Part shown: positions 2,703 to 61,324 of the stretch, piece by piece | Position numbering within the stretch: position 1 is the first letter of the stretch | Layout of the letters: every line of letters begins with the position of its first letter | DNA from: Fervidicoccaceae archaeon | GTDB taxonomy: Archaea; Thermoproteota; Thermoprotei_A; Sulfolobales; Fervidicoccaceae | NCBI GenBank assembly: GCA_038734945.1 | Contig: JAVYOA010000009.1 | Location: 186,001 to 250,000 of the forward strand | Length of the DNA: 64,000 nt | Reading direction: 5' to 3' | The notes under the pieces: model-generated | What the model was told of the DNA's origin: nothing | Databases searched by the model: none | Seen by the model: only the letters and a program-made list of their open reading frames with translations | Made by a program: the position numbers and the translations under genes

Positions 2703-3608
2703 GTGGGCCAGGCAATGGATGATCTGAAGAATAGCTTGGAGAAGTTCTGCATAGACGAATACGTTGATAGCAAAATATATGAAGCTCTTGCCAAGCAGGA
2801 GAAGGATTCAAGGAAAAGAGAAGTTCTCCAGAGGATGAGCTTGGAGGAAAGACAGCATTATGAATTCTGGAAAAGCTTGATAGGATCAGAATGCAGGACA
2901 ACAGGAATCAAAAGAAAAATATTAACTATGCTGATGTTGAGAAAGTTATTTGGACTAACATTCACTTCGCTTTTTCTGGAAAGACATGAAGCCGAAGTTG
3001 TGGAGGCATATGAGAGCATAGCACAGAAGCTTCCACAGCAGTTCTCCAAGATGCTTGAAAAAATTATAGAGGAAGAGGAAAAGCACGAGAGGGAAACGAT
3101 ATCAGAAATAGATGAGAGGATCGTGAAATATATGAGCTTCGTTATACTAGGCCTTGCAGATGCTATTGTTGAGATCAATGGAGTGCATGCCGGTTTTCTA
3201 GGTGTTACTGAGTCCACAATAGTTACTGGCATAGCTGGCCTTGTAGTTGGATTATCTGCAGCAATATCTATGGCTTCAGCAGCCTATCTCCAAGCAAAAC
3301 ATGAAGCAGGAAAATCTCCCAAGACCTCCGCATTGATGACAGGAGTGGCTTATATACTTGCTGTCGTTGCTCTTGCTCTTCCCTATTTTATCATAAGGCA
3401 CATGCTCTCTGCTTTTGCCATCTCTGTTAGTCTAGGAATAGCTATGATAGCGGGCTTCACATTCTACGCTTCTGTCCTGCAGGACAAGAAATTTACAAGG
3501 GAATTCCTCGAATCCGTTGTTCTAATGATGGGGACGGCTCTAGCTTCTTATCTGTTTGGAGATTTGCTTGGAACTGTATTTGGAATAAGGGGCCTCTTAG
3601 GACCTTGA
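2703..3608 (+). CDS. rubrerythrin/ferritin-like domain fused to VIT1/CCC1 membrane domain (MbfA-like iron protein)
   Basis: ExxH di-iron motifs (EERQH, EEEKH); C-terminal VILGLADA...AISMA VIT1 motifs. Confidence 0.85.
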   Translation: MGQAMDDLKNSLEKFCIDEYVDSKIYEALAKQEKDSRKREVLQRMSLEERQHYEFWKSLIGSECRTTGIKRKILTMLMLRKLFGLTFTSLFLERHEAEVVEAYESIAQKLPQQFSKMLEKIIEEEEKHERETISEIDERIVKYMSFVILGLADAIVEINGVHAGFLGVTESTIVTGIAGLVVGLSAAISMASAAYLQAKHEAGKSPKTSALMTGVAYILAVVALALPYFIIRHMLSAFAISVSLGIAMIAGFTFYASVLQDKKFTREFLESVVLMMGTALASYLFGDLLGTVFGIRGLLGP

Positions 3609-3627: not shown

Positions 3628-4710
3628 TCATCCCTTTGCTTTGCTAATTCTTTCCAATATTGAGTCAACAGCACCTTTCATTGTTCTCGGAAGCTCTGAG
3701 AAACCTGTTTCCAAAAATCCCCTTATTAGCAGTGAAATCGCCTCGTCCTCGCTGAAACCCTTTGTCTCCAAATACTCAAGCTCCTCTCTCTTTATTTTCC
3801 CTATGCTAGCCTCATGAGTTAGTTCAGCATCACTGGATCTCGAGTTAAGCTCTGGAATAGATATTACTTCCGAGCCCTCATCAAGAGTTATTCCTCTACA
3901 TTCAATGTGCCCTTTTACCATTTTTCCTGATGCAAATATCCTAGCCTTTGACCTTATTTTGCTCCTGTTCCTCGCCAAAAGCCTGGATATCATTTGGGAT
4001 GAAGATCCAGATCCGTTCAGAAAAACTTCCGTACTATAAGAAAGTGAGCTTTCCCCACTACCTGCAACAATCTGATCTATTCTCGATGCTGAGTTATTTC
4101 CATCTTGATGAATTGCTGTATTGAAGGAAATTGATTTGGCTTCAGAATAGTTTATGTACAAATCCTGATAGACACCATTATCTTCGATCTCTGCAGCAGT
4201 AAATGCCGAAACGTTTATGCCTGGAAGCCAGTTGTGAAGCATTATTTTGGTGAACTTAGCGTTCCGCATAACATGTATCTCCTCTAAGCTCGAATGAACA
4301 GCTTCATTGACTAAGGTAAAACAACCAGAGACTCCAACAGCACTTGCTCCATCATCTACAACCGTCAAGTTATATACTTTCTGAATCACCCCTCCTCTTC
4401 CAAGAACAAAGCAATTAAATATTGGCTCTTCAACAACAGTTCCCTTAGGCACATATAGAAATATCCCACTGTCAACACGCCTTAAGTCTCCCTGAATTCT
4501 CTTGAAGGCAAATTTTTCAAAGATATCCGGATGCTCCTTTTCTGCCTCATGTATTTCCATATAAATGACTCCCAGCTGCTCCAATCTCTTAGCAATTTTC
4601 TTGTAAGCGAAGGATTCGTTTAAAACAACCCCCCCTCCCTTTTCTAGGTCAAGTCCAAGCTCCTTTGCTCTGGAAATAGCATCTCTAAGCTTATTTTCTT
4701 CCCTGTTCAT
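3628..4710 (-). CDS. sufB: SufB/SufD-family Fe-S assembly protein (SmsB-like)
   Basis: C-terminal GHIECRG, IPEL, LTHEASIGKI, EAISLLIRGFL motifs. Confidence 0.85.
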   Translation of the reverse strand: MNREENKLRDAISRAKELGLDLEKGGGVVLNESFAYKKIAKRLEQLGVIYMEIHEAEKEHPDIFEKFAFKRIQGDLRRVDSGIFLYVPKGTVVEEPIFNCFVLGRGGVIQKVYNLTVVDDGASAVGVSGCFTLVNEAVHSSLEEIHVMRNAKFTKIMLHNWLPGINVSAFTAAEIEDNGVYQDLYINYSEAKSISFNTAIHQDGNNSASRIDQIVAGSGESSLSYSTEVFLNGSGSSSQMISRLLARNRSKIRSKARIFASGKMVKGHIECRGITLDEGSEVISIPELNSRSSDAELTHEASIGKIKREELEYLETKGFSEDEAISLLIRGFLETGFSELPRTMKGAVDSILERISKAKG

Positions 4711-4713
4711 TTC

Positions 4714-5442
4714 CTAACCCTCCCCCTCCACACTGAAGTTGCTGTAGCCTTCAGAAATCACGGTTCTGAGCATTTTCTTAGCATCACCGCCGGGAGAAAT
4801 CTTCCCTCCTATCATGATATATCCTCTCCCCAATTTCCTGAGAAATCTGCTCAACAATCCAGCATGTGTGACCAAGAGGACTGCTACCCCCCTTATAGCA
4901 AGATCATCTATTAACCTCGCAATTCTCTTAACAGAATCAATGTCAACTCCACTGTCGGGCTCATCTAGGAGTGCTACTTTCGGCTTTGAAAGGAGAATCG
5001 TAGCCATTTCAACTCTCTTCATCTCCCCTCCACTGAATCCAGAGAAAGCAGGTCGCTCCAAAAGATGTGGAATCATTGTTTCGGACACTATGCTTTGTAT
5101 TTCACTCTGCGTTCCATAAATATTTGAAATTTTTTCGAATAGCCAGCTAGTTTTCAGTGAGATAGGAGGAGGAGACTGGTTGGCTATTGCTATACCATTG
5201 CGAGCTCTCTCCCAGGGCGGGAGATCTGTTATGTCCTTTGAGTAAAGGAGAATTCTCCCCTCTTTAATTCTATAATTGGGCAATCCCATAATTGTCTTTA
5301 GGAGAGAGGTCTTTCCACTCCCATTCGGTCCCATGAGGACAACTATCTCGCCTGGATTCACATCTAGGCTAGCATTTCTTATTACTAGTTTCCCATTCAC
5401 CTCAACGCTGAGATTTTCAACTGCGAGGGCCCTTTGCTGCAA
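4714..5442 (-). CDS. sufC: SufC-family ABC ATPase (SmsC-like)
   Basis: Walker A GPNGSGKT, FSGGEMKR, LLDEPDSGVD; start placed at TTG 5442 after GGTGA (track ORF begins 5478). Confidence 0.85.
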   Translation of the reverse strand: MQQRALAVENLSVEVNGKLVIRNASLDVNPGEIVVLMGPNGSGKTSLLKTIMGLPNYRIKEGRILLYSKDITDLPPWERARNGIAIANQSPPPISLKTSWLFEKISNIYGTQSEIQSIVSETMIPHLLERPAFSGFSGGEMKRVEMATILLSKPKVALLDEPDSGVDIDSVKRIARLIDDLAIRGVAVLLVTHAGLLSRFLRKLGRGYIMIGGKISPGGDAKKMLRTVISEGYSNFSVEGEG

Positions 5443-5633
5443 AACCTTCACCCGGCCATCGAATAAGACTATTTCCACCTGAAGAGAATATAAGCTTCTT
5501 TCATCGTCATTCCAAAAATTTTCTGAAAAACAGCAAGTTTGCCAAATGGCTGCAGCTGTTTAAGTAAGCAAACTATAGTTTTAAATATAAACATTTAAAA
5601 ATGATATTTTATGGCAATAAAGGTGGGTATCCC

Positions 5634-7964
5634 TTGGCTTCTATTGACTTGGAAAGGCTAATGAACAAATGGCTTCAGGCATCAGAATTCTATGTGGTTG
5701 GGAAAAGGGTGGAAAGAACAGATAGTCTAGAGAAGGCTATGGGTATAACAAAATTTACCGAGGATTTCTATATGAAAGACATGCTATTTGTGAAGCAGAT
5801 CCTCAGCAAGCATCCTCATGCCAGGATAGTTTCCATAGATGATTCTGAAGCTAGAAGAGTAAATGGATTTTTGCGAATCGTCAGGGCCTCAGATATACCT
5901 GGAGAAAATCAGGTAGGTTATTCGCTCCCTGATCAACCACTTCTTGCTCACAAAAAGGTCAGATATGTTGGTGAACCAGTAGCCTTGGTGATAGCTAGAG
6001 ATTTCGAATCTGCTATAGAGGCTTCCAGGCTTGTAAGCGTAAGCTATGAACCCATTCCCTATATCATTAATGCAGAGGAGGCAATCAGAGAGAAAAACAT
6101 CCTAGTTCACGAGGAGAACGGCTCCAACATAGCATTCAGGACAAAGGTGAGGAAGGGAGACGTTGAAAAGGGATTTTCCGAATCTCATGTGGTTGTTGAA
6201 AACACATATAGAACAGCTCATCAAGAGCATGCCTATTTGGAAACTGAGGCCGCTATAGCAATTCCAGGCCTCGAAGGAAAGCTCACAATAATTTCTCCTT
6301 CTCAGTATCCTCATCTTACACAAAAAATTGTTTCCAAGGTACTTGGTCTGCCGGCGAGTTCTATAAGAGTTATCGTTCCATATTTAGGAGGGGGATTTGG
6401 TGGAAAAGACGATCAGGGCCCGCTCACATCCGCGAAGGCAGCTCTTGTTTCATATCTTACAGGAAAGCCATCCTTTATAATATATTCAAGAGAAGAGAGC
6501 ATTGCAGTTCATCCAAAAAGAGAAGCCACAACAATAAGGTACAAGAGCGGAGCAGATGCTGAAGGAAAGTTGAAGGCAATAGAAGTGGAAATAATTCATG
6601 ATACAGGGGCATATGCAAACAGAGGACCATTCATACTTTGGAGAGCCACCATGCATGCCTCAGGGCCATATGAGGTGCCCAATGCGAAGGTAGACGGTTA
6701 TTGCGTCTATACTAACAAAATCTATCAGGGATCATTCAGAGGCTTTGGAAACCCCTCGGTCCAGTTCGCAGCGGAAAGCCAAATGGACATTCTTGCTGAG
6801 AAGCTGGGAATTGATCCCCTTGACATTAGACTTAAGAATATTCTGACTCCTGGAGCAAGAACGATCACTGGGCAGGAGCTGGATTCTTCTGTAGGAATTA
6901 AGGATGCCCTAGAGGCTGTTGCAAAAAGAGCAGAATGGAGAGAAAAACGAATTGCATATTCAAGAGAGAGAGGCACACTCAGGAGGGGAATTGGAATAGG
7001 AGTGGCTTGGCATGGAATAAGTACATCTAGAGGTGTTCCCGACTGGTCTGCAGGAACTGTTAAAATAGAACCAGACGGTTCCGTTTCGGTTCTCGTAGGA
7101 ATTGTTGAAATAGGACAGGGATCTCCTTCGTCTTCACACAGACAGATAGTCGCTGAGGTGCTGGGAGCACCTCTCAACATGGTTCACGTCTACTTTGGAA
7201 CTTCAGATGCTCCCGACGGAGGTGCAACCCATGCCTCTAGAGGTACAGGCATAGGTGCTATCGGCATCTATGTTGCATCTATAGAACTTAGAGAGAGACT
7301 AAATGCTCTTGCAGCAAAGCTGTTGGAAACTGAACCAGAGGATATTTCAATTAGCGACGGGATAGTATCATCGAAATCTGATCCCTCTAAGAGGATTAGT
7401 TGGACCGAGCTTATTAAGAAAGCATATTCTAGCGGTATCAACATGACAGCTTCAGGGTATTTCTTTTTACCGAAAGGAAAGTTTTACGACGATATTGGTC
7501 AGGGATTTGCCTATATTTCCTATAGCTACATGGCATTAATAACTGAGGTCCAGGTAGATACGGAGACCGGAGAAGTGAAAGTTCTCAAAGTTTATCCAGC
7601 AATTTCTGCTGGGAAGGTGATAAATCCAGTGCAGGTAGAGGGTCAGATCGAGGGAGGGTTTGTCCAGGGCATGGGAATGGCCCTCATGGAATCTCTCTCT
7701 TTCAATGAAAGAGGAGAGATAGTGAACAAAGACCTAACTGATTATGTGATTCCATCGTCACTCGATGCTCCAGAAATAGAAGAGCCAATTTTCATAGAGG
7801 ACAGATTCAAGTATGGTCCTCTAGGAGCAAAAGGAGTCGGTGAGATGGCTCTAATACCTGCTCCCGCCTCTATAGCAAATGCCGTATCGCATGCTATTGG
7901 AAAAAGAGTAGTGGAACTACCTATTACAGCAGAAAAAGTTCTAAAATTAATAGAGGGGAGGTGA
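5634..7964 (+). CDS. xanthine dehydrogenase family molybdopterin-binding subunit (enzyme 1)
   Basis: QEHAYLE, GGGFGGK, FRGFG, EIGQG, EGQIEGG, AKGVGE motifs; TTG start after AGGTGG (track ORF starts 5601). Confidence 0.92.
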   Translation: MASIDLERLMNKWLQASEFYVVGKRVERTDSLEKAMGITKFTEDFYMKDMLFVKQILSKHPHARIVSIDDSEARRVNGFLRIVRASDIPGENQVGYSLPDQPLLAHKKVRYVGEPVALVIARDFESAIEASRLVSVSYEPIPYIINAEEAIREKNILVHEENGSNIAFRTKVRKGDVEKGFSESHVVVENTYRTAHQEHAYLETEAAIAIPGLEGKLTIISPSQYPHLTQKIVSKVLGLPASSIRVIVPYLGGGFGGKDDQGPLTSAKAALVSYLTGKPSFIIYSREESIAVHPKREATTIRYKSGADAEGKLKAIEVEIIHDTGAYANRGPFILWRATMHASGPYEVPNAKVDGYCVYTNKIYQGSFRGFGNPSVQFAAESQMDILAEKLGIDPLDIRLKNILTPGARTITGQELDSSVGIKDALEAVAKRAEWREKRIAYSRERGTLRRGIGIGVAWHGISTSRGVPDWSAGTVKIEPDGSVSVLVGIVEIGQGSPSSSHRQIVAEVLGAPLNMVHVYFGTSDAPDGGATHASRGTGIGAIGIYVASIELRERLNALAAKLLETEPEDISISDGIVSSKSDPSKRISWTELIKKAYSSGINMTASGYFFLPKGKFYDDIGQGFAYISYSYMALITEVQVDTETGEVKVLKVYPAISAGKVINPVQVEGQIEGGFVQGMGMALMESLSFNERGEIVNKDLTDYVIPSSLDAPEIEEPIFIEDRFKYGPLGAKGVGEMALIPAPASIANAVSHAIGKRVVELPITAEKVLKLIEGR

Positions 7965-8845
7965 GTAATTTGTTCTATTCACTGCCAAGCTTCGAATATA
8001 CTAGAGCAGATAGCTTAAGCGTGGCATTAGATTTACTGAAGGAAGGGAATTGGAAGCTGCTGGCAGGAGGAACAGATCTGCTAATCGATATAAAGACTGG
8101 GAGGCAAGCTCCAAAAAAACTATTGGATATATCCAGGATCAATGAGATAAGATATGTTAGGCCAAACGAAAATATAATTAGAATAGGGGGAGGCTCAAGG
8201 CTTCAGGAATTGCTCGAAAATATTGTAATCAGAGAGAGGTTGCCATTGCTGGCATCAGCTATACGAGAGATGGCGTCTTGGCAAATAAGAAACGTTGCGA
8301 CGATTGCTGGGAATCTCTGCAATGCATCTCCAGCAGCAGACTCAGCCCCTCCCCTTCTTGTCCACGAAGCAAAAGTCCGGTTGGCCTCAACAGCAGGTTC
8401 CAGAATTGTCCCTCTTAAGGACTTCTTCATAGGTCCTAGGAAAACGGTAATGAGAGATGACGAGATGCTAACAGAGATAGAAGTCCCGTCTCTTGAGGGA
8501 TATTCTTACTGGTACTATAAGCTGGGAAGGAGAAATGCTTTTACCCTCTCTGTAGTCTCTGTTGCTGTTGCCTTGAAAATAGAGGATGGGAAATTCTCAG
8601 ATGTTAGGATAGCCCTCGGATCTGTGGCACCCAAACCTGTAAGAGCCCTCAGCGTCGAGGAGGAACTGGTTGAAAGAAATGCGGATGTCTCATTAGCCTA
8701 CCGGGCAGCCGAGCTCGTCGAAAGGGACATATCGCCTATCAGCGATGTAAGGGCTTCCGCTGATTATAGAATGAAGGTTTCCAAGGTACTTATAAAAAGA
8801 GCTCTTATAGAATCGATAAAACGCTCAAGAGGTGAGCTGCTCTGA
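7961..8845 (+). CDS. xanthine dehydrogenase family FAD-binding subunit (enzyme 1)
   Basis: LAGGTDL, QIRNVATIAGNLCNASPAAD, PISDVRAS; GTGA overlap with the upstream gene. Confidence 0.92.
   Translation: MSNLFYSLPSFEYTRADSLSVALDLLKEGNWKLLAGGTDLLIDIKTGRQAPKKLLDISRINEIRYVRPNENIIRIGGGSRLQELLENIVIRERLPLLASAIREMASWQIRNVATIAGNLCNASPAADSAPPLLVHEAKVRLASTAGSRIVPLKDFFIGPRKTVMRDDEMLTEIEVPSLEGYSYWYYKLGRRNAFTLSVVSVAVALKIEDGKFSDVRIALGSVAPKPVRALSVEEELVERNADVSLAYRAAELVERDISPISDVRASADYRMKVSKVLIKRALIESIKRSRGELL
8303..8377 (+). repeat. 75-bp exact direct repeat, copy 1 (inside FAD subunit 1)
   Basis: attgctgggaatctctgc...cacgaagcaaaagtc is identical to 13461-13535. Confidence 0.92.
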
Positions 8846-9306
8846 AAGTTTCCTTTATCTTAAATGGAGAAAAAATTGAGGTCGATGTCCCTCCCAATGA
8901 AATCCTCCTGGATACATTGAGATTAAGGCTCGGGGTTAAGGGGCCAAAGAGAGGGTGTGAGAGGGCTGAGTGCGGCACATGCACTGTGCTGCTGGATGGA
9001 AAGCCCGTTTATTCATGCAATATCTTAACAGTCCAGGCTGATGGAAGGGAAATAATGACTATTGAGAAGATCTCTCAGGAAGCTCTTGGCAGAAAGATAG
9101 CAGAATCATTCTCCAGGGAAGGGGCAGTTCAGTGCGGCTTCTGCACCCCAGGGTTCGTTACTGTAGCATATGCCCTAGCTGCGTCCAATTCAAATCCGAA
9201 TGAAGCTGAAATTAGAAAGAGCATTGAAGGTAATCTATGCAGATGCACTGGCTATAAAAAAATTGTTAATGCAATAATGAAGAGCCTGTCTTCTGAGTCT
9301 AAGTGA
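8842..9306 (+). CDS. xanthine dehydrogenase family 2x[2Fe-2S] subunit (enzyme 1); probable CTG start
   Basis: GCERAECGTCTV, QCGFCTPG, GNLCRCTGY. The frame extends upstream of the track start (8917) as LKVSFILNGEKIEVDV to CTG 8842, bounded by in-frame TGA 8833-8835. Confidence 0.9.
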   Translation: MKVSFILNGEKIEVDVPPNEILLDTLRLRLGVKGPKRGCERAECGTCTVLLDGKPVYSCNILTVQADGREIMTIEKISQEALGRKIAESFSREGAVQCGFCTPGFVTVAYALAASNSNPNEAEIRKSIEGNLCRCTGYKKIVNAIMKSLSSESK

Positions 9307-10642
9307 ATTTCTTCAACTGCCTTCCAGAACCCTTCCTTCTTATTTCTCCGTTCTCCACTATTATCTCTCCTCTAAGCAACGTCTTTTCAACCTTTCCCTT
9401 CAGCTTCATTCCTATGAAGGGAGTAATGGTACTCTTTGTTATCAACCATTCCTCCTTTACAATTGTTTCTCCATTTTTATCTACTATTACTATATCTCCA
9501 TCGCTTTTTCCAGGAATCAGCTCTCCCTTCATCGGCCATATTCCCAGAAGCTTTGCTGGATTCCTTGAGAGCAATCTTGGAATGTCGGTCAGAGAGATCA
9601 GGTTATCTAGAGCCAAGTTGAGGAGAGAAGGAAGCAGCAACTGCACCCCAATGAATCCAGCCGGAACATCCCATATGCTCTCCCTGCTTTTTTCCTCAGG
9701 AGAATGTGGAGCATGATCTGAGCCCACAGAATAGATGACTCCAGACTTGATGGCCTCTAGCAATGCCTTTCTATGCTCCTCCTCTCTTATAGGAGGATTC
9801 ACCTTCAACTTACTGCCAAAAGTACTGTAATGGCTTCTATCAAAATAGAGGTAGTGGGGGCAAGTTTCCCCCGTCATTCTTACACCCTCCTCGAAAGCTT
9901 TCAATAAAAAGTCCAGAGTTCCCTTTGAGGAAATGTGAGCTACATGCGCCTTTCCCCCAGTCTCCTTTGCTATCATATAAATCTTTGCTACGGCGATTTC
10001 CTCCGTAATAGGAGGTCTTGAAAGGAGATGAGCTGAAGGATCATTCCTTCCTGATGACTTCATTCTCTCGGTGAACAGGCTAATGAGAGAACTATCCTCA
10101 GCATGAAAAACAACTGGAAAATCGTACTTTTTCGAGAGCTCCAGAGCCCTGTAAATCGTAGAATTATCCGGAGATGGAAGATTCCCAGTAGTAGGGCCAA
10201 GGAATGCCTTAAATGCGATCGCACCTTCCTTGAGCATATACTCCAATTTATTTACGCTCTCATCTGTTAGGACTCCGTAGAGAGCAAAATCAACTGTTGC
10301 CTTCTTTTTCAATAGCTCAGCTTTCTCAGCAATTCTTTCTCTACTATCAACAGGCGGTATAGTATTTGGCATCTCAGCGACAGTAGTTACTCCCCCCACA
10401 GCAGCAGCCATTGTTCCATGTTCAAAATCATCCTTATATTCAAGTCCTGGTTCCCTCATATGCACGTGCTCATCAATTATTCCCGGGAAAACAAGCTTTC
10501 CAGTAGCATCTATAACCTCATCTGTCCCTTCTCTCGATAGCTGCTTCCCAATTTTTTCGATCTTGCCATCTGAAATTAGAATATCACCATCGAATACCAG
10601 CTCTGGAGTGACTATGTGTCCACCCTTTATCAAAACATTCAT
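9299..10642 (-). CDS. dihydroorotase/allantoinase-family cyclic amidohydrolase (DHOase-type residues)
   Basis: DEHVHMREPG, EMPNT, FKAF, HAED, HVAHIS, ETCPHY, KVNPPIR, SDHAPH. Confidence 0.88.
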   Translation of the reverse strand: MNVLIKGGHIVTPELVFDGDILISDGKIEKIGKQLSREGTDEVIDATGKLVFPGIIDEHVHMREPGLEYKDDFEHGTMAAAVGGVTTVAEMPNTIPPVDSRERIAEKAELLKKKATVDFALYGVLTDESVNKLEYMLKEGAIAFKAFLGPTTGNLPSPDNSTIYRALELSKKYDFPVVFHAEDSSLISLFTERMKSSGRNDPSAHLLSRPPITEEIAVAKIYMIAKETGGKAHVAHISSKGTLDFLLKAFEEGVRMTGETCPHYLYFDRSHYSTFGSKLKVNPPIREEEHRKALLEAIKSGVIYSVGSDHAPHSPEEKSRESIWDVPAGFIGVQLLLPSLLNLALDNLISLTDIPRLLSRNPAKLLGIWPMKGELIPGKSDGDIVIVDKNGETIVKEEWLITKSTITPFIGMKLKGKVEKTLLRGEIIVENGEIRRKGSGRQLKKFT

Positions 10643-10737
10643 GCTTTCAACCTCCCCACAAAACCATAATCCATTTTTTGCTTATAAAATATAAAAATTA
10701 AATAAAAGGAGCCCACAGTTTTTTTTAGTGATAAAGA

Positions 10738-13101
10738 ATGCAGAAAGAAAAAGGAAAGTTCAAATTTATTGGGACAGATATTCCCAGAAGAGATGCTGAT
10801 AGCAAGATAAGGGGAAGCTTGACATATGCCTCCGACATATCTTTCCCGGGAATGCTCTACGGAAGAATAGTATACAGTCCCTACCCGTTTGCCGATATTG
10901 AAGAAATAGATCCTTCTGAAGCCGAAAGGATGGGAGCTGTGGTTATTACTCCAAAGGACGTTCCGAGCAAGCCCTTCAACATAAGGCTGGTTAGCATAAA
11001 CGAGGTAACATTCAAGGATTGGAGCATTCTAACTCTAACCCCAAGATATCTGGGAGATCCTGTAGCAGCAGTAGCTGCTTCATCAGAGGAGCTAGCTCAG
11101 AAAGCTGCTGAGCTCATCAAATTCAAGTTCAGAAGAATTATGGAACCGATAATCGACCCCTTTGATTCACTGAAGGAGTCATCTCCTCCAATTAGAGAAA
11201 AAATACTGAAGGGAGAAGAGGAGGTCGAAATAAAGAGAAACATAGGAGCATCCCTGAACTATTCAGAAGGAGACATAGAAAGAGGGGAAAAGGAAGCAGA
11301 GATAGTTCTCGAGAGAAATTTCAAAACAAGCAGAAGATATCATTTCCAGCTTGAGCCCAAGGTTTCGGTTTGTTTTCCTGAATCCGATGGAAGGATTTCA
11401 ATATATACAACAACACAAACAATTCACAATACAAGGATATTGGTAGGCCAAGTTTTCGGAATCCCTCTATCTCGCATAACTGTGAAGAGAATTCCAATAG
11501 GAGGATCCTTTGGATCCAGCATTCAAACCAATTTGGTAACTCTCATAAGCGTAGCTCTCTGCCTCAAAGCAAAAAAACCTGTAAAAATTTCCCTGACTAG
11601 AGAGGAAGACATGTATGATCACTCTGACTACGAGATGTATCTGAAGCTGAGAATTGGTGCTAAGAGGAGTGGGGAGCTGACGTTCGGAGAACTTGAGAAC
11701 ATAATGGACATAGGAGCGCATCAAGTCCAAGCTTATCCATTGCTTGGAACAGCGCTGGGGTGGTTTGTATCCCTATACAAATGGAAAAACATCAAATACA
11801 GAGGTCTAGCAGTTTATACAAACAAAACACCATCCTGTGCTTTCAGGGGATATGGAGCCCCCCAAATCTCTTGGGCAGTTGAAACAATTATGGATGAGCT
11901 TGCTGAGGAGCTGAAAATTGATCCTCTTGAGCTAAAGCTGAAGAACTACGTCGGTCTAGGGGATGTTTTCTGGGGGCAAGGGCCCTCAGTAAGGAGCATA
12001 ATAAAGTCGGATGGAGTCAGGGAACTTGTAGAGAGAGGAAAACAGCTAATTGGCTGGGATAGAAGACAGCCGCCTCACTTGAAAAGAGGAAGATTCAGAT
12101 CCGGAATAGGATTTGGCAGATCCTTCCACACATCCGGGGCAGGCGGTCCAATATCTGGGGAAGTGATCGATTATACTGGAGCTACTTTGAAGTTAAACGA
12201 GGATGGAAGCCTTGATTACATAACAGCACTACAGGATCACGGCGGCGGCACATTGGAAGCCCACGTAAAAATAATTGCTGAGGAGCTTGGCGTTCCTCCT
12301 TGGCTAATAAATGTAGTCCCATCTGACACAAGCATTTCCCCCTATGACGTTTGCACACATGCTTCAAGAGGGACATATGTTGGAGGAGAGGCTGCGAGGA
12401 GGGCAGCTCTTGCCGTCAAATCCAAGATATTTGAGTATGCAGCCAGAATATTATCCAAGGCTGTAAACCCCGAATCGTTCAGGTTAGGCTACGATGAAAG
12501 CCTTGAGCAAGCAGTTGTCTACATAGAAGGCATGAAGGATATGAAAATTCCTCTATCAGAAGTAGCTAGAATAGGTTGGCAGAGAAACTGGGGAACCATA
12601 GCTTCCACGATAAGCTATAGAGCAACATCAGCTCCCCCCACATTCACTGTGTTCTTCGTCGAAGTCGAAGTCGATACATATACAGGAAAGGTTATCCCTA
12701 AAAAGGTAGTAGCCGGGGCAGATCTTGGAACTGTCATCAATCCAAAGCTGGCAGAGGGTCAGCTGCATGGCGGATTCGTTATGGGATGGAGCATGGCCTA
12801 TCTGGAGGACACAGAATATGATAAGAGAACAGGAGAGCTTTTGAACAGAGGTATGGTTGTCGACTACAAGATACCAACATTCCAGGATGCTCCAAAACTG
12901 GAGGACTTCAAAGTAATTTTTGCAGAGACAAGTGAACCTACAGGCCCCTACGGAGCAAAAGGATTGGGCGAAGCAGCTTTGAATCCTGTCGCAGGAGCTG
13001 TGGCCAATGCCATCTACAACGCTATTGGCATTAGATTCTACAGGCTTCCAATAACCCCCGAGAAGATTCTTCAGTCCCTAACCGGTGGTGAGACGCAATG
13101 A
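10738..13101 (+). CDS. xanthine dehydrogenase family molybdopterin-binding subunit (enzyme 2, atypical motifs)
   Basis: FRGYGAPQ, EGQLHGG, AKGLGE; GGSFGSS in place of GGGFGGK. Confidence 0.9.
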   Translation: MQKEKGKFKFIGTDIPRRDADSKIRGSLTYASDISFPGMLYGRIVYSPYPFADIEEIDPSEAERMGAVVITPKDVPSKPFNIRLVSINEVTFKDWSILTLTPRYLGDPVAAVAASSEELAQKAAELIKFKFRRIMEPIIDPFDSLKESSPPIREKILKGEEEVEIKRNIGASLNYSEGDIERGEKEAEIVLERNFKTSRRYHFQLEPKVSVCFPESDGRISIYTTTQTIHNTRILVGQVFGIPLSRITVKRIPIGGSFGSSIQTNLVTLISVALCLKAKKPVKISLTREEDMYDHSDYEMYLKLRIGAKRSGELTFGELENIMDIGAHQVQAYPLLGTALGWFVSLYKWKNIKYRGLAVYTNKTPSCAFRGYGAPQISWAVETIMDELAEELKIDPLELKLKNYVGLGDVFWGQGPSVRSIIKSDGVRELVERGKQLIGWDRRQPPHLKRGRFRSGIGFGRSFHTSGAGGPISGEVIDYTGATLKLNEDGSLDYITALQDHGGGTLEAHVKIIAEELGVPPWLINVVPSDTSISPYDVCTHASRGTYVGGEAARRAALAVKSKIFEYAARILSKAVNPESFRLGYDESLEQAVVYIEGMKDMKIPLSEVARIGWQRNWGTIASTISYRATSAPPTFTVFFVEVEVDTYTGKVIPKKVVAGADLGTVINPKLAEGQLHGGFVMGWSMAYLEDTEYDKRTGELLNRGMVVDYKIPTFQDAPKLEDFKVIFAETSEPTGPYGAKGLGEAALNPVAGAVANAIYNAIGIRFYRLPITPEKILQSLTGGETQ

Positions 13102-14003
13102 GCGTGCTCAATAGGATCAACACGAGAGTTATACCAGCATCCTTTGAATACCATGAACCAAAAACCCTCGATGAAGCTCTGAAGCTCTTGAATGAACTTG
13201 GAGATGCTGCTAGGATTCTAGCTGGTGGAACAGATCTGCTGGTCAAGATGAAGAGCAGGTCAATCGAGCCAAAACACATCATTAACATAAAGAGAATTGA
13301 GGGACTTAGATACATATCTGAGGAAGGAGGACTTATAAAGATAGGAGCTCTAACAACATGGAGAGATCTTGAGAGATCCCAGCAGATTAGACAGAAGCTT
13401 CCAGCTCTCTACGATGCTGTTAAATCAATGGGGAGTGTTCAAGTAAGGAGTATGGCCACAATTGCTGGGAATCTCTGCAATGCATCTCCAGCAGCAGACT
13501 CAGCCCCTCCCCTTCTTGTCCACGAAGCAAAAGTCATCGCTGTCAGCCTTAGGGGGAAGAGAACCATTCCAATAGATCAGCTCTTCCTATCTCCAGGTAA
13601 AACTTCTCTATTGCCAAGTGAAATGCTCATTGAGATAGATATACCGCTTCCTCCTTACAACAGCTCCTCATCGTTCCTGAAACTGGCAAGGACTTCCATG
13701 GATCTTGCTAAAGCCAGTGCAGCAGTGTATATAAAAATGAATGGGGATGTGGTGGAAGATGCAAAGATAGCATTGGGTTCCGTGGCACCAACTCCAATCT
13801 TGGCTAAGAAAGCTGCTGCTGAGCTAATCGGAAAGAAAGCTTCAGAAGAGGTAATTTCAAAAGCTTCCAGCATTGTCGCAAGTGAAATTTCCCCAATTGA
13901 TGATATACGGTCAACGGCATTCTATAGAAGAAAAGTTTCTCCTATCTTGGTTTCCGATGCAATTCACATGGCAATTTCTAGACTTCGAGGTGATGGAGCT
14001 TGA
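13098..14003 (+). CDS. xanthine dehydrogenase family FAD-binding subunit (enzyme 2)
   Basis: LAGGTDLL, QVRSMATIAGNLCNASPAAD, PIDDIRST; ATGA overlap. Confidence 0.92.
   Translation: MSVLNRINTRVIPASFEYHEPKTLDEALKLLNELGDAARILAGGTDLLVKMKSRSIEPKHIINIKRIEGLRYISEEGGLIKIGALTTWRDLERSQQIRQKLPALYDAVKSMGSVQVRSMATIAGNLCNASPAADSAPPLLVHEAKVIAVSLRGKRTIPIDQLFLSPGKTSLLPSEMLIEIDIPLPPYNSSSSFLKLARTSMDLAKASAAVYIKMNGDVVEDAKIALGSVAPTPILAKKAAAELIGKKASEEVISKASSIVASEISPIDDIRSTAFYRRKVSPILVSDAIHMAISRLRGDGA
13461..13535 (+). repeat. 75-bp exact direct repeat, copy 2 (inside FAD subunit 2)
   Basis: Identical to 8303-8377; flanks diverge. Confidence 0.92.
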
Positions 14004-14464
14004 TGATCAGTTTTAATCTCGATGGAAGAAAAGTCTCGATTGACATTGAGCCGAATGAGCTTCTACTGAATGTCCTCAGAGATAGGCTTGGAGTCAACGT
14101 TCCCAAATATTCCTGTGGGATAGGAGAGTGTGGGGCATGCACTGTTCTCATAGACGGAGAACCCCATCTTTCTTGTTTAACTCTGGCTGTGGACGTCAAT
14201 GGAAAGGATGTCAGGACGGCTTCAGGATTGGATGAAAAAGATCTCTCTATAATTTCGAAGACCTTTGCTGAGGAGGGAGCAGTGCAGTGCGGCTACTGTT
14301 CCCCAGGAATCGCTGTTATGACGTACAGTCTTCTGCAAGAAAAAGAGAAAGTAAGTGAAGATGAAGTGAGAGAGTATTTGAGAGGAAATCTCTGCAGATG
14401 CACCGGCTATGTAAATATCGTGAGAGCTGTTCTAAAGGCAGCTGAAATGAGGGGAAAAAAATGA
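14000..14464 (+). CDS. xanthine dehydrogenase family 2x[2Fe-2S] subunit (enzyme 2)
   Basis: CGIGECGACTV, QCGYCSPG, GNLCRCTGY. Confidence 0.92.
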   Translation: MMISFNLDGRKVSIDIEPNELLLNVLRDRLGVNVPKYSCGIGECGACTVLIDGEPHLSCLTLAVDVNGKDVRTASGLDEKDLSIISKTFAEEGAVQCGYCSPGIAVMTYSLLQEKEKVSEDEVREYLRGNLCRCTGYVNIVRAVLKAAEMRGKK

Positions 14465-15384
14465 AAGAGCTAAAGGGAAGAGACATACTTTCATCATTTG
14501 ACTTCGATAGAGAAACTGTAGAGCATCTATTTGCCGTTGCTGATTATCTGAAAAAAGAGCTCAGTGAGAGAAAGCTCAAAATTGCTGAGGGAAGAATACT
14601 GGCAACAGTTTTCTTGGAGCCAAGCACGAGAACTAAGCTGAGCTTCCAGATGGCAATGCTCAAGCTCGGAGGGAGTTACATAGACTTTCTACCTGAAACG
14701 AGCTCCCTCCAGAAGGGAGAAAGCGACATCGATACACTGAAGATCATAGATAACTACGACCCGGATCTGATAGTGTTGAGGCAAAGCAAGCCGTTCTTTC
14801 CACACAAAATCAAGGATGAGCTGAGAGCACCTATCATAAATGGGGGAGATGGCACTAATGAGCATCCGACGCAGGCATTGCTGGATGCCTATACTATTTG
14901 GAAAGAGATAGGATCGCTCGATGGTTTGAAGATCGGCTTCATGGGAGATCTGAAGTATGGTAGAACCGCACCGTCTCTCTCATATCTTCTCTCTTTCTTC
15001 AAGGGAGTAAAGATCTTCTACATTTCTCCGAAGGAGCTGAGAATAAGAGACGAGGTAAAGGAAAAAATCAAATCAAGGGTAACTTTTCAGGAGTTCGAAA
15101 GATTAGAGGAAATCTGCGAGGACCTTGACGTTCTCTATGTAACTAGACTGCAAAAGGAGAGGTTCAGCAATCAGGAAGACTATGAAAGGCTAAAATCAAG
15201 CTATATTGTGGATCGAAGAACTCTGTTAAAATTGAAAAGAATTCCAATAATAATGCATCCCCTCCCAAGAGTTTGGGAGTTGGCAACAGATGTGGACTCC
15301 CTTCCTCAGGCTAAGTACTTTGAGCAGGCTAGAAATGGGATGTTTATTAGAGCAGCCCTTATCAAAGAAATTTTAGGTCTGTAA
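14461..15384 (+). CDS. pyrB: aspartate carbamoyltransferase catalytic subunit-like protein
   Basis: FLEPSTRT, KGES, HPTQALLD, GDLKYGRT, TRLQKER, MHPLPR; no pyrI adjacent. Confidence 0.88.
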   Translation: MKELKGRDILSSFDFDRETVEHLFAVADYLKKELSERKLKIAEGRILATVFLEPSTRTKLSFQMAMLKLGGSYIDFLPETSSLQKGESDIDTLKIIDNYDPDLIVLRQSKPFFPHKIKDELRAPIINGGDGTNEHPTQALLDAYTIWKEIGSLDGLKIGFMGDLKYGRTAPSLSYLLSFFKGVKIFYISPKELRIRDEVKEKIKSRVTFQEFERLEEICEDLDVLYVTRLQKERFSNQEDYERLKSSYIVDRRTLLKLKRIPIIMHPLPRVWELATDVDSLPQAKYFEQARNGMFIRAALIKEILGL

Positions 15385-15640
15385 TTTCATGAAAAGCGTA
15401 ATACTGAAGGATTAAAAAAGGAAAGCAGAAAGAAGCATATGTTGCTTAGACTCCTTTTCATAAATTTTTTAAAATAATTATAGAATGAGCTCTTTTCTGC
15501 ATTATATTAGCTAATTTTTAAATTATAAACTAACACATGATCAACATATCATATTATTGAATTTCTTCGCTTCTTCTTTCGGAACAGATTTAGTTGCTCA
15601 GGTCATAAGTTATGATCCTCGTTCGAGGGTGAAACGTTAA

Positions 15641-17101
15641 ATGAGCCTCTCAAACATGCTGAATAGATTCTTCGAAATCGATAAAAGAAATACAACCATA
15701 AAAATTGAAATAATAGCAGGAATAACTACTTTCCTGTCTATGGCATACATACTTTTTGTCAATCCTACAATACTTACAGAAGGTTTTTCAATTGCTCTTC
15801 ATCAGTCGCTTGGAATACCAATTGGGGATCCTCTGCCTGAACAATATCTCAATCTCCTCTATAATGTCAGATTGGGATTTACAGCGGCTACTGCTATTTC
15901 TGCTGCTGTTGCCACGCTAGTTATGGCTCTATACGCGAGACTGCCTTTTGCCCTTGCCCCAGGAATGGGAGAAAACGCATTTGTGGCCTACACGATAATC
16001 CCTCTATTCAACGAACTCATTCTCTCTAGCGGGGCAGTTCAAGGACCGGCTGCTTCTCAGCTTGCTATATATTTGGCCTTAATATCTGTTCTCTTCAACG
16101 GAATTCTATTTTTAATTTTCTCAATAGGAAAAATCAGAGAATTCATAATAAACTCCGTTCCCGAATCTCTCAAGCTAGGAATCGGCATTGGAATAGGTCT
16201 TTTCATAACGCTAATAGGATTTGCTGATGTTGGGATCGTCAAGGGGGGAATAGCTACTCCAATAACATTCAACTCAAGTGCTCTAACGAGCCTTCCCTTC
16301 TATATAGGAATGCTCAGCTTCTTAGTCGCCTCAGTACTTCTAGTAAAAAAGGTAATAGGAGGATTCATAATAGCAATCCTATCATCGACATTTGTAGCAG
16401 CCCTCCTTGGAATGATCTCCCTACCATCTTCAATTGTTGTAGCCCCCTCCCTTACAACATCTATTCTAAACGAGCTGCCAAAATCATTTTATCTCTATCT
16501 ATCTCTATTCGGCATAGGTTTTCCAATAGCCTTCTCTCTCTTCCTAGTTGATTTCTTCGATGGCATAGGAACGATAACAGGACTCGCTACCAAGGCAAAT
16601 CTTCTTGAGAACGGAAGAATAGTAGGAATAAACAGGGCTCTTATAACTGATGCTTTTGCATCAATACTAGCGCCATTCTTTGGCACATCTACGGTAGTTA
16701 TCTACATAGAGAGCGCTTCCGGAATAGAGCAAGGAGGAAGGACAGGTCTCACTGCCTTGGTTGTGTCATTGCTCTTCTTCATCTCTGTACTGCTTACTCC
16801 ACTGTTCACTGCAATACCATCCTACGCTACTGGAGGAGTTCTTATGCTGGTGGGCTTGCTTTTTCTTTCCCTATCTGGCAATCTTGCTAAGCTAGAGGAC
16901 TACAGCGAGCTTATCCCAGCATTTGTCACAATAACATCAATTCCGTTCTCGTACAGCATTACTACTGGAATAGGGCTTGGCTTCATAACATATACGCTCA
17001 TTAAGCTGCTCTCGGGCAAATTCAGAGACTTGAAACCGGGAGTGCTGATAATAACCCTGCTCTTCGCGATCTTCTTCGTGCTCACGGCAAAGGGGTTCTA
17101 G
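15641..17101 (+). CDS. NCS2-family nucleobase permease (AzgA/PbuG-like)
   Basis: EIIAGITTFLSMAYILFVNP, LAPGMGENAF, YIESASG..GGRTGLTA. Confidence 0.92.
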   Translation: MSLSNMLNRFFEIDKRNTTIKIEIIAGITTFLSMAYILFVNPTILTEGFSIALHQSLGIPIGDPLPEQYLNLLYNVRLGFTAATAISAAVATLVMALYARLPFALAPGMGENAFVAYTIIPLFNELILSSGAVQGPAASQLAIYLALISVLFNGILFLIFSIGKIREFIINSVPESLKLGIGIGIGLFITLIGFADVGIVKGGIATPITFNSSALTSLPFYIGMLSFLVASVLLVKKVIGGFIIAILSSTFVAALLGMISLPSSIVVAPSLTTSILNELPKSFYLYLSLFGIGFPIAFSLFLVDFFDGIGTITGLATKANLLENGRIVGINRALITDAFASILAPFFGTSTVVIYIESASGIEQGGRTGLTALVVSLLFFISVLLTPLFTAIPSYATGGVLMLVGLLFLSLSGNLAKLEDYSELIPAFVTITSIPFSYSITTGIGLGFITYTLIKLLSGKFRDLKPGVLIITLLFAIFFVLTAKGF

Positions 17102-22214: not shown

Positions 22215-22277
22215 CTTTTAACCCTCTCTCTTAACATCCAATAAGATAACTTCATCTTTAATTAAAAGGATAAAAAA

Positions 22278-24107: not shown

Positions 24108-24270
24108 CTGCTCTTTAAAGTTCTGTAATGGGATAATCCATATAGTATTTAAATTTAATGTTACAATTAGAACATTTTTTTAAAATTATTCTAATTAATT
24201 TATAATATAAAAAACATTTAAAAGTGTTTTATCCCACATGCATAAAAGTCAACTCGGAGGTCACTTCAAT

Positions 24271-29110: not shown

Positions 29111-29118
29111 CTCTGGAG

Positions 29119-30000: not shown

Positions 30001-30012
30001 GGTTGTTGGAAA

Positions 30013-31002: not shown

Positions 31003-31003
31003 C

Positions 31004-55433: not shown

Positions 55434-56138
55434 TCACATATTGAGAATAAATCTCGCATCTACTGCGAATGCACCTTTATCGTAAACTATAACAGGATTT
55501 ATGTCCATTTCCTTCAGCTCTTGATTCTCGTAAATGAGTTTAGCAGCCTTCACAATTATCTCAGCTATGGCTTTCTTGTCCTTAGGTGTATCTCCTCTAT
55601 ATCCTTCTAATAGGCTTTTTGACTTGATTTCGTCAATCATATCGAGAGCCTCTTTTTCTTTCAGAGGAGCTATTCTGAATGAAACGTCTCTGAAAATTTC
55701 AACAAAAATTCCTCCAAGTCCGAACATTATTGTGGCATCAAAAACAGGATCCCTTATTCCTCCTACTATTACTTCTATTCCTCCTTTTGGTAGCATCTTC
55801 TGTGCTAAGAAGCCTGCTATCTGAGCGCCCGGCTTATTCTTCTCCACGTTTTCCTTAATCTTATTCACAGCATTTTTCATTTCCTCTAGGCTGTTAATTC
55901 CTATAATGACTCCGCCAACATCTGACTTATGAACGATATCAGGAGATACTATTTTGAGAACAGCTGGGAATCCAACCTTTTCTGCTGCTTTTACTACATC
56001 TTTTTCATCTTTAATGAAAAAATAAGGAGCTACGGGTATATCATAGGCCTCAAGAAGGGCCATAGATTCATGTTCAAGAAGCTTTTTTCTACCCTGTTTT
56101 TTTGCCTCAGCAATTATATCCTTAACCTTTTCTGACAT
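55434..56138 (-). CDS. ADP-forming acyl-CoA synthetase beta subunit
   Basis: GFP.VLKIVSPDIVHKSDVGGV, FGLGGIFVE, EMDINP, VDAR. Confidence 0.93.
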   Translation of the reverse strand: MSEKVKDIIAEAKKQGRKKLLEHESMALLEAYDIPVAPYFFIKDEKDVVKAAEKVGFPAVLKIVSPDIVHKSDVGGVIIGINSLEEMKNAVNKIKENVEKNKPGAQIAGFLAQKMLPKGGIEVIVGGIRDPVFDATIMFGLGGIFVEIFRDVSFRIAPLKEKEALDMIDEIKSKSLLEGYRGDTPKDKKAIAEIIVKAAKLIYENQELKEMDINPVIVYDKGAFAVDARFILNM

Positions 56139-61321: not shown

Positions 61322-61324
61322 GAA

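Follow-up and report, generated by a model that had tools for sequence, protein, structure and literature searches.

A conserved cluster of two molybdenum hydroxylases, a dihydroorotase-type amidohydrolase and an aspartate carbamoyltransferase in a Fervidicoccaceae archaeon, with a possible role in anaerobic heterocycle breakdown

Organization of the locus

The stretch of DNA analyzed here, 64,000 nucleotides of contig JAVYOA010000009.1 (positions 186,001 to 250,000, forward strand) from a Fervidicoccaceae archaeon, is referred to as the window. Near its start, two different operons of the xanthine dehydrogenase (XDH) family lie beside genes for a cyclic amidohydrolase (AH) and an aspartate carbamoyltransferase (ATCase, PyrB). 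This cluster is a well-supported conserved genomic unit, found in several archaeal and bacterial lineages. We tentatively read it as a catabolic module that takes a ring compound to N-carbamoyl-aspartate and then to aspartate and carbamoyl phosphate, a function that we consider possible although somewhat short of probable. Positions are those of the window, whose open reading frames (ORFs) of at least 100 aa were scanned against Pfam and NCBIfam. Compared genomes and loci carry our working numbers (G and L), G000 being the assembly that contains the window. The features of the cluster are as follows.

5601..7964, plus strand: L1, molybdopterin subunit of XDH-family operon 1, 787 aa; Ald_Xan_dh_C/MoCoBD_1/MoCoBD_2 (Pfam)
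7961..8845, plus strand: M1, FAD subunit of operon 1, 294 aa; FAD_binding_5 and CO_deh_flav_C; 4-base overlap with L1
8842..9306 (8917-9306 in the ORF list), plus strand: S1, 2x[2Fe-2S] subunit of operon 1; Fer2_2
9299..10642, minus strand: AH, cyclic amidohydrolase, 447 aa; Amidohydro_1; borderline between type I dihydroorotase (DHOase), hydantoinase and allantoinase
10643..10737: AT-rich divergent spacer between AH and operon 2, 95 bp
10738..13101, plus strand: L2, molybdopterin subunit of XDH-family operon 2, 787 aa; Ald_Xan_dh_C, MoCoBD_1 and MoCoBD_2; a distinct subfamily
13098..14003, plus strand: M2, FAD subunit of operon 2, 301 aa; FAD_binding_5 and CO_deh_flav_C
14000..14464, plus strand: S2, 2x[2Fe-2S] subunit of operon 2, 154 aa; Fer2_2
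14461..15384, plus strand: PyrB, PyrI-less ATCase, 307 aa; OTCace_N and OTCace
15641..17101, plus strand: NCS2 permease of AzgA type, 486 aa; Xan_ur_permease, 87.7 bits; 256 bp after PyrB

Genes inside each XDH operon overlap by 4 bases, AH and S1 are convergent and share 8 bases, and the start of PyrB overlaps the stop of S2 as ATGA (14461-14464). The original prediction, made from the letters of the window before any database search, had described two complete and different L/M/S operons flanking an inverted amidohydrolase, and the ORF map and domain scans agree with it. The 95-bp spacer that it placed between AH and operon 2 is confirmed, as are the ATGA coupling of a PyrB-like gene to that operon and the nucleobase permease behind it. 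Its starting coordinate, 5634, has to be corrected, because it falls within an ORF whose start is ATG 5601; the feature itself stands. Domains of pyrI, pyrD, pyrE, pyrF or carB type, which it had reported as missing, are found in none of the scanned window ORFs, and the family searches of the whole genome described below gave the same answer.

The N-terminal ferredoxin domain of S1 is encoded in frame upstream of 8917. At the aligned codon the orthologues in G002 and G001 start with ATG, where this genome has CTG (8842), so that the true start is probably CTG 8842, overlapping the stop of M1 (cTGA). The CTG (window 8836-8925) may represent a non-canonical start, reinitiation or a start-codon mutation.

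The molybdenum hydroxylases and the permease

With an identity of only about 31-34%, L1 and L2 belong to two different enzymes. The best NCBIfam models for L1 are pucD (507.7 bits) and XdhA (505.2 bits), neither of which reaches its equivalog cut-off (780-784), and that for L2 is XdhA (477 bits, cut-off 780); the best match of L2 in the Protein Data Bank (PDB) is 4-hydroxybenzoyl-CoA reductase (267 bits). Aligned to bovine xanthine oxidase, L1 keeps the Gln, the Arg of FRGFG and the Glu of GVGE, with the Glu of GGKE replaced by Asp. L2 keeps the Arg (FRGYG) and the Glu of GLGE, with Gln replaced by Arg and the Glu of GGKE by Ile. The residues compared would be Gln767, Glu802 (GGKE) and Arg880 in what we take to be the bovine numbering. 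Both proteins are molybdenum hydroxylases and keep the catalytic Glu and the Arg of that family, L1 retaining most of the purine-XDH residues and L2 being without the purine-type Glu and Gln; a specificity for purines would be no more than a possibility. Two more XDH-family large-subunit paralogues, 30-35% identical to L2, are encoded elsewhere (G000:C9:101031-103349 and G000:C1:18489-20846), making four molybdenum hydroxylases in a 1.34-Mb genome.

The permease has the adenine/guanine permeases AZG2/AZG1 as its best PDB matches and is named 'putative guanine permease' in the Atlas with a score of 0.98; on these matches it is assigned to the AzgA adenine/guanine/hypoxanthine type. It adjoins the cluster in G002, not in G001, and in no other family.

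Identity of the transferase and the amidohydrolase

PyrB scores 325.5 bits against TIGR00670 (cut-off 236.95) and 291.5 against NF002032 (cut-off 263), and its best PDB matches are the ATCases of Methanocaldococcus jannaschii and Pyrococcus abyssi. It contains STRT at 55, HPTQ at 135, RLQ at 229 and HPLP at 266. According to Table 1 in the available part of PMC4016543, the four motifs S[TR]RT, HP[ST]Q, HP[LG]P and RXQ separate genuine ATCases from the pseudo-ATCases of purine catabolism. Because all four are present and the equivalog score is above its cut-off, the transferase is to be classed from its sequence as a genuine ATCase, and the earlier description of it as merely PyrB-like was too cautious. 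A reading as pseudo-ATCase or ureidoglycine carbamoyltransferase was considered and ruled out: in pseudo-ATCases, as far as the same portion of PMC4016543 reports, RXQ has become AIA, GXS or VXP, HP[LG]P is altered and a true PyrB coexists, whereas here RXQ and HP[LG]P are intact and the genome is without a second ATCase. YgeW models give only 26-30 bits on PyrB, and the genome contains no knotted transferase of YgeW type, its two OTCace-family genes being the ATCase and an ornithine carbamoyltransferase (OTC); YgfK, SsnA and YgeX were not searched for.

AH is harder to name. It exceeds the cut-off of the broad model TIGR00857 (pyrC_multi; 356.6 bits, cut-off 279.05) and barely that of the allantoinase model TIGR03178 (364.1, cut-off 357.85), reaches no DHOase equivalog cut-off in NCBIfam, and stays below the cut-off of the ErtD hydantoin-5-propionate amidohydrolase model with 302 bits. 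Its best solved relative is the DHOase of Aquifex (3d6n_A, 245 bits). The motifs HVHMR, MPNT, FHAED, HVAHIS and SDHAPH align with that structure, and the residues of these motifs have metal and substrate roles in the family, so that AH is predicted to be of DHOase type; it has Lys where the Aquifex enzyme has an Asp, which we take to be the bridging Asp. Public names of its orthologues are inconsistent (allantoinase AllB, dihydroorotase, dihydroorotase family protein). No uricase or allantoate gene was seen in the window, the genome not having been searched for them.

Pyrimidine genes elsewhere in the genome

The assembly (1.34 Mb, 9 contigs, 99.95% complete) contains exactly two OTCace-family genes, the window ATCase and the OTC, and AH is its sole gene of the DHOase class. 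The separate set of pyrB, pyrI and pyrC that the original prediction had proposed looking for was sought across the genome and not found. PyrI (PF01948) has zero matches in the genome, family searches of the genome found neither pyrE nor the large subunit of carbamoyl-phosphate synthetase (CPSase, carB), and tblastn with the canonical pyrF-pyrE-pyrB-pyrI-(pyrK)-pyrC-pyrD operon of the family member G004 did not find pyrE, pyrF or pyrI. Two candidates were examined and rejected. The only gene of OMPdecase fold (PF00215), a candidate pyrF, is of the hexulose-6-phosphate synthase type, and the only DHO_dh gene (PF01180), a candidate pyrD, is PreA-like and lies next to EtfAB. The latter (G000:C1:96196-99255; L030 7196-10255) has a C-terminal 2x[4Fe-4S] domain and is divergent from the EtfB/EtfA-like genes, which would be unusual partners for a dihydropyrimidine or dihydroorotate dehydrogenase.

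A carbamate kinase gene, arcC, is present (G000:C1:170780-171754; TIGR00746, 382 bits, cut-off 358.25). The surroundings of the carbamate kinase and PreA genes give no hint of a pathway. Pyrimidines can be salvaged, as Upp is encoded (218.9 bits, cut-off 208.35). With pyrD, pyrE, pyrF, pyrI and carB missing and Upp present, the organism appears as a pyrimidine salvager that still keeps an ATCase and a DHOase-type enzyme.

Conservation and selection within the order

Among 41 genomes of the order, which as relatives are non-independent samples, ATCase homologues fall into two groups, one of 55-78% identity (G001, G002, G024, G014, G031, G037 and G017) and one of 36-49%. Five of the seven genomes of the first group (G001, G002, G024, G014 and G037) have XDH1, AH, XDH2 and PyrB clustered, in three different gene orders; the adjacency of S2 and PyrB recurs within the genus. 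PyrI occurs in 27 of the 41 genomes and in none of the eight with an L2 orthologue (at least 63% identity).

The same division is seen in a maximum likelihood tree of ATCases (30 rows, after removal of sequences shorter than 285 aa and of L031 and L032, duplicates of L013 and L014). A branch of length 0.72 with a support of 100/100 has all 18 XDH-linked ATCases, together with those of G017 and G031, on one side and all eight PyrI-linked ATCases on the other, including G004 and G005 of the organism's own family. The ATCases of Bathyarchaeia are nested inside the XDH-linked, Desulfurococcales side, which indicates that the block has moved horizontally as a unit.

Searches for pyrD, pyrE and pyrF found none of the three in G000, G001, G002 and G014, the last of which is 100% complete. 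Because synonymous divergence (dS) is saturated within the genus, nonsynonymous divergence (dN) was used there, with the pair G024/G014 added for omega. For PyrB, dN between G000 and G002/G001 is 0.155-0.186 (PolB, 0.152), and omega between G024 and G014 is 0.023 for PyrB and 0.068 for AH. PyrB and AH show no decay and are under strong purifying selection in lineages without pyrD, pyrE and pyrF. Their conservation in the absence of these genes means that the function under selection is independent of them.

Separate pyrF-pyrE-pyrD clusters are present in G024, G037, G017 and G031. G017 is a weak witness for stand-alone pyrB and pyrC, since a TAG interrupts the reading frame of its PyrB near codon 18. 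Both carbamoyltransferase genes of that genome (PyrB, L019 9514-10434; OTC, G017:C4:119267-120184) contain one in-frame TAG each, and these could be sequencing errors, marks of pseudogenes or cases of TAG read-through. The phosphoribosyltransferase beside PyrB in G017 was tried as an orthologue of the XPRT-like phosphoribosyltransferase of G000 and ruled out, its best NCBIfam model being adenine phosphoribosyltransferase, below cut-off. A TrpB-like enzyme dependent on pyridoxal phosphate (TrpB2 family, NF009057, 665-682 bits) lies near AH/PyrB in both g15 genomes (L018 11606-12892 and L019 12009-13370).

Distribution and neighbors in other phyla

Orthologues of L2 with 46-84% identity were found at 50 public loci from Desulfurococcales, Bathyarchaeia, Caldarchaeales, Hadarchaeota, Atribacterota, Caldisericota and Bacillota, many of them cut by contig ends. 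A second XDH L subunit accompanies L2 at 25 of the 50, an AH orthologue with 45% identity or more at 19 (with two more at 35-37%) and a PyrB of at least 50% identity at 14. In a count restricted to loci whose L2 has an identity of 55% or more and whose flanks each reach 3 kb or more (n=11, including L056 and L057 of Bathyarchaeia), AH is present at 10, PyrB at 9 and a second XDH at 10. The linkage of XDH1, AH, XDH2 and PyrB exceeds chance. The original prediction had named two findings as grounds for abandoning it, namely that these were the only pyrB and pyrC in a genome with an otherwise complete pathway and that their linkage to xdh genes was not conserved; on both counts the opposite was found, the pathway being incomplete and the linkage kept across families and phyla.

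The neighbors of the cluster vary with lineage. In L051, AH lies between both XDH operons, all on one strand. Carbamate kinase, which the original prediction had suggested looking for, directly adjoins the cluster at three loci (L055, L077 and L060) and is also found with it in Atribacterota, and a class I aminotransferase adjoins PyrB or AH at six. Zestosphaera-type loci have an FmdA/AmdA amidase after XDH1, and the Caldarchaeales locus L058 has HisD near XDH2. In Bathyarchaeia the neighbors are a CN_hydrolase (L056) or an M20 hydrolase of N-carbamoyl-amino-acid type (L057), plus an amino-acid permease, and in Bacillota (L076) they are PucR, an NCS1 permease, an AH-like amidohydrolase and an M20 enzyme of the hydantoinase/carbamoylase family.

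The most extended arrangement is that of two Atribacterota genomes. Here a single strand carries, in this order, IOR alpha/beta, ACS alpha/beta (ADP-forming), XDH2, XDH1 and genes for molybdenum cofactor maturation, followed by an ABC transporter, carbamate kinase (found just in G043), an ATCase that has all four ATCase motifs, an AH homologue and a GTP-dependent phosphoenolpyruvate carboxykinase (PEPCK). PEPCK also follows XDH2 at the Caldisericota locus, and in a third Atribacterota genome (L083) an AH paralogue adjoins an Asp/Glu/hydantoin racemase.

A possible catabolic route

In the route that we propose, XDH1 and XDH2 would each introduce one water-derived oxygen atom at a C-H that adjoins a nitrogen of an N-heteroaromatic acid, giving a cyclic ureide, and AH, as an enzyme of DHOase or hydantoinase type, would open this to N-carbamoyl-L-aspartate. 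The PyrI-less ATCase would then run in reverse, converting N-carbamoyl-aspartate and phosphate to aspartate and carbamoyl phosphate. A carbamate kinase, here encoded outside the cluster, would turn carbamoyl phosphate into ATP, CO2 and NH3 with a gain of one ATP, and aspartate would be passed on via the class I aminotransferase and PEPCK. Transfer of water-derived oxygen to a C-H adjacent to ring nitrogen is the established chemistry of molybdenum hydroxylases, and a series of two different hydroxylases, a cyclic amidohydrolase and an enzyme that removes the carbamoyl group is the classical plan by which heterocycles are broken down anaerobically. As this last enzyme is here a genuine ATCase, N-carbamoyl-L-aspartate is the expected ring-opened intermediate. 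In relatives that keep pyrD, pyrE and pyrF, the same two enzymes would double as PyrB and PyrC; with these genes lost in G000 and G014, only the catabolic role can remain there. We infer the direction of flux, the substrate and this bifunctionality alike. The earlier proposal that PyrB- and PyrC-type enzymes work here in the catabolic direction therefore stays plausible, with the direction of flux being an inferred one; as a dedicated catabolic pair of paralogues it does not hold, given that the same enzymes are biosynthetic in G024 and G037.

A more specific, and more doubtful, version of the proposal takes imidazole-4-acetate, an end product of histidine fermentation, as the substrate, degraded anaerobically by the hydroxylase pair, the DHOase-type enzyme and the reversed ATCase. 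Hydroxylation at C2 and C5 would give hydantoin-5-acetate (5-carboxymethylhydantoin), and its hydrolysis N-carbamoyl-aspartate. On chemical grounds, imidazole-4-acetate appears to be the only common heteroaromatic acid, among those we found, that would yield N-carbamoyl-aspartate by two hydroxylations without a reduction. According to the accessible parts of PMC9986279 and PMC3942289, it is what hyperthermophilic peptide fermenters form as end product when fermenting histidine, by way of an aminotransferase, a 2-oxoacid:ferredoxin oxidoreductase and a dedicated synthetase of ADP-forming type. These enzymes match the IOR and ACS genes joined to the XDH pair in Atribacterota. Together with the hydantoin racemase, HisD and N-carbamoyl-amino-acid hydrolases of other phyla, they point to a 4-substituted imidazole such as imidazole-4-acetate, while nothing shows the nucleobase substrate that the original prediction had assumed. 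The Bacillota variant, with its ErtD/ErtE-like enzymes, would be one carbon longer and lead from imidazole propionate via hydantoin-5-propionate to N-carbamoyl-glutamate. The genome of the window itself encodes IOR, ACS and KOR, and HutH (histidine ammonia-lyase) was not found in it.

Several observations weigh against this interpretation as a whole. The XDH-clade ATCase is the only ATCase in G024, G037, G017 and G031, and the DHOase family is represented only by the AH orthologue in G024 and G017 and, as far as intact genes go, in G037, where a canonical-type pyrC is split. As sole intact copies in genomes with pyrD, pyrE and pyrF, they must be the true biosynthetic PyrB and PyrC of G024 and G037 (in G031, PyrB), so that an ordinary biosynthetic role of ATCase and AH in those two genomes, and of the ATCase in G031, is certain. 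In L047 and L051 the cluster has pyrF-pyrE as neighbors, in Zestosphaera-type loci pyrF-pyrE lies 2 kb upstream of it, and in L056 and L057 pyrD-pyrE is beside it. The carbamate kinase, aminotransferase and PEPCK beside the ATCase fit equally well a synthesis from phosphoenolpyruvate (PEP) through oxaloacetate and aspartate to carbamoyl-aspartate, and the equilibrium of the ATCase reaction favors synthesis. Action of a DHOase on a five-membered hydantoin is an unproven assumption. Neither a hydantoin racemase nor a cluster-adjacent IOR/ACS was found in this genome, and the purine-type permease beside the cluster and the purine-XDH residues kept by L1 favor a purine substrate. As for the split gene of G037 (G037:C1:784093-785413), its two frames of 300 and 178 aa fit a replacement of canonical-type pyrC by the XDH-linked AH.

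The objection from the permease and the residues of L1 leads to the nucleobase reading, which we think unlikely. Here the permease would import a purine or pyrimidine (hypoxanthine, xanthine, urate, orotate or uracil), XDH would hydroxylate it, AH would open the ring and the transferase would phosphorolyze the ureido product to carbamoyl phosphate. The AzgA-type permease 256 bp downstream of PyrB, the pucD and XdhA models at the top for L1, which conserves three purine-XDH residues (Gln, Arg and the catalytic Glu), and the PucR and NCS1 permease of the Bacillota sister cluster all suit it. It also has a precedent in the reductive urate pathway, which, in the available text of PMC12507026 and 10.1101/2025.04.24.650524, combines XDH, amidohydrolase, carbamoyltransferase and carbamate kinase. 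However, with all aspartate-specific motifs kept, the product should be N-carbamoyl-aspartate, which no purine gives, and orotate would need a reductase, which G014 is without. The permease is adjacent in one of the two relatives within the genus and in none of the other families, the purine-type Glu and Gln are missing from L2, a YgeW-type transferase is absent from the genome, and the IOR and ACS genes, hydantoin racemase and HisD of the sister clusters are left unexplained.

That pyrB and pyrC are ordinary pyrimidine genes beside unrelated molybdenum hydroxylase operons, for aldehyde oxidation or purine salvage, in a block spread horizontally, strikes us as having a similarly small chance of being right. 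The genes in this genome would then be leftovers of a decaying pyrimidine pathway or unlinked in function to the XDHs. Such a history would be in keeping with the genuine ATCase and DHOase motifs, with the sole copies in relatives that have pyrD, pyrE and pyrF, with the nesting of the Bathyarchaeal ATCases in the Desulfurococcales clade and with the two further XDH-family L paralogues of the genome. It sits badly with a linkage that survives at least three rearrangements across Thermoproteota, Bathyarchaeia and Atribacterota, and with selection on PyrB and AH that is not relaxed in two independent lineages without pyrD, pyrE and pyrF. The ATGA coupling of pyrB to S2 here, the S2-PyrB adjacency across the genus and the position of AH in L051, on one strand with the XDH operons and between them, likewise argue for a functional connection.

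Weakest is an anabolic or salvage role, in which the XDH pair and AH would make N-carbamoyl-aspartate from a scavenged heterocycle without CPSase, or XDH would replace PyrD, with ATCase, carbamate kinase, aminotransferase and PEPCK running synthetically: the pyrF-pyrE or pyrD-pyrE genes near the cluster in L047, L051, L056 and L057, the genome without CPSase and the fit of the adjacent carbamate kinase, aminotransferase and PEPCK to carbamoyl-aspartate synthesis from PEP speak for it, and it is nonetheless improbable, since in G000 and G014, without pyrE and pyrF, no product reaches UMP by a known route, the irreversible carbamoyl-amino-acid hydrolases of sister clusters argue for breakdown, and we know of no molybdenum hydroxylase that dehydrogenates dihydroorotate.

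Comparison with known systems

The nearest parallel to the catabolic route proposed here is the reductive (2,8-dioxopurine) urate pathway of E. coli and Clostridium, for which the accessible text of PMC12507026 and 10.1101/2025.04.24.650524 describes XdhD/XdhAC, YgfK, SsnA, HyuA, YgeW, YgeY, YgeX and YqeA. Common to both would be an anaerobic setting, an XDH-family enzyme, cyclic amidohydrolases, a phosphorolytic carbamoyltransferase and a carbamate kinase yielding ATP. Confined to the urate pathway, so far as those sources go, are the knotted YgeW, a flavin/selenium reductase, a diaminopropionate lyase and pyruvate as product, whereas the cluster described here has two hydroxylases, no reductase and a genuine ATCase, with aspartate as the expected product.

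A second parallel is the pseudo-ATCase or ureidoglycine carbamoyltransferase of Rubrobacter xylanophilus, an ATCase-family enzyme whose gene neighbors xdh and the genes for carbamate kinase and an amidohydrolase of allantoinase type, and which is proposed to be catabolic (Barba et al. 2013, PMC4016543, in the part available), a paper in which the 'reaction module' is also set out as a concept. In the Rubrobacter enzyme, as that part describes it, RXQ is lost, HP[LG]P is altered and a true PyrB coexists; in the archaeal cluster the four motifs are kept and the ATCase is the sole one. Use of ATCase in reverse together with carbamate kinase would parallel OTC in the arginine deiminase pathway as well as YgeW and YqeA in the reductive urate pathway.

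The orotate fermentation of Clostridium oroticum proceeds through an NADH-dependent orotate reductase, dihydroorotase, 5-carboxymethylhydantoinase (EC 3.5.2.4) and ureidosuccinase. In it the chemistry of pyrimidine biosynthesis is reversed, and N-carbamoyl-aspartate is a hub connected to both dihydroorotate and 5-carboxymethylhydantoin, as is proposed here; it differs in that the carbamoyl group is removed by hydrolysis and not phosphorolysis, molybdenum hydroxylases do not take part and the substrate is orotate. The aerobic imidazoleacetate pathway of Pseudomonas, via imidazoleacetate monooxygenase, formiminoaspartate and formylaspartate to aspartate, also connects imidazole-4-acetate with aspartate. 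It differs in its O2-dependent flavin monooxygenase, its single oxygenation and the absence of hydantoin, carbamoyl phosphate and ATP gain.

The ErtD/ErtE route of ergothioneine and histidine breakdown is known to us through the NCBIfam models NF058538/9 and NF058540 only. Its likeness lies in the opening of an imidazole-derived 5-substituted hydantoin, by an amidohydrolase resembling AH, with an N-carbamoyl amino acid as the product; the route has one carbon more (propionate to glutamate), and its decarbamoylation is hydrolytic. On ErtE (N-carbamoyl-L-glutamate amidohydrolase), the M20 enzyme from the sister cluster in Bacillota gives 310 bits, below the equivalog cut-off. The DHOase-ATCase complex of Aquifex aeolicus (3d6n) likewise pairs a PyrI-less ATCase with a type I DHOase; it is biosynthetic and has no link to molybdenum hydroxylases.

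The urate, Rubrobacter, C. oroticum and ErtD/ErtE routes thus share a logic of hydroxylase or reductase, cyclic amidohydrolase, decarbamoylation and sometimes carbamate kinase. What sets the present cluster apart is that a DHOase-type enzyme and a genuine ATCase present in one copy are combined with two hydroxylases and no reductase. A literature search, whose coverage did not extend to subscription-only papers, found neither this linkage nor an anaerobic, molybdenum-dependent route through imidazoleacetate or hydantoin-5-acetate.

Were the proposed route correct, ATCase and DHOase would have a second, energy-yielding role, which would explain the retention of pyrB and pyrC in pyrimidine-auxotrophic archaea. 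It would also provide a first function for a molybdenum hydroxylase pair with a wide distribution among uncultured lineages of the subsurface and of hot springs (Desulfurococcales, Bathyarchaeia, Atribacterota and others), correct the inconsistent annotation of AH as allantoinase or dihydroorotase, close the open end of archaeal histidine fermentation, and add a new route of substrate-level phosphorylation. Even with a wrong guess at the substrate, the conserved cluster is a well-defined and testable target.

Other features of the window and of related genomes

Directly upstream of XDH operon 1 lies a sufB/D-sufC block (3628-5478), and beside it, at 2703-3608, is a gene for a rubrerythrin-VIT1 fusion of the MbfA-like iron exporter type. 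Positions 21129-32008 form one block with an M24 prolidase-type peptidase, an Opp/Dpp-type ABC transporter (SBP_bac_5, two permeases and two ATPases) and HyuA/HyuB. This last pair (24238-28088), an ATP-dependent hydantoinase/oxoprolinase, is a second and different 'hydantoinase' system near the cluster. Further on are the beta subunit of an ADP-forming acyl-CoA synthetase (ATP-grasp_5, 55434-56138) and a 2-oxoacid:ferredoxin oxidoreductase in four parts (60360-63479), both part of a peptide-fermentation machinery that may be able to make arylacetates.

Among the related genomes, tandem divergent carbamoyltransferases of about 350-370 aa, 25-30% identical to PyrB, occur at G009:C1:18975-20842, G010:C4:31856-34080 and G031:C34:8758-10468 and in G027 and G037; they are absent in G000. 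The pairs lie a few kb from a protein of ~408 aa that matches the C-terminal half of DHO_dh only, and they possibly mark another uncharacterized ureide-catabolic cluster.

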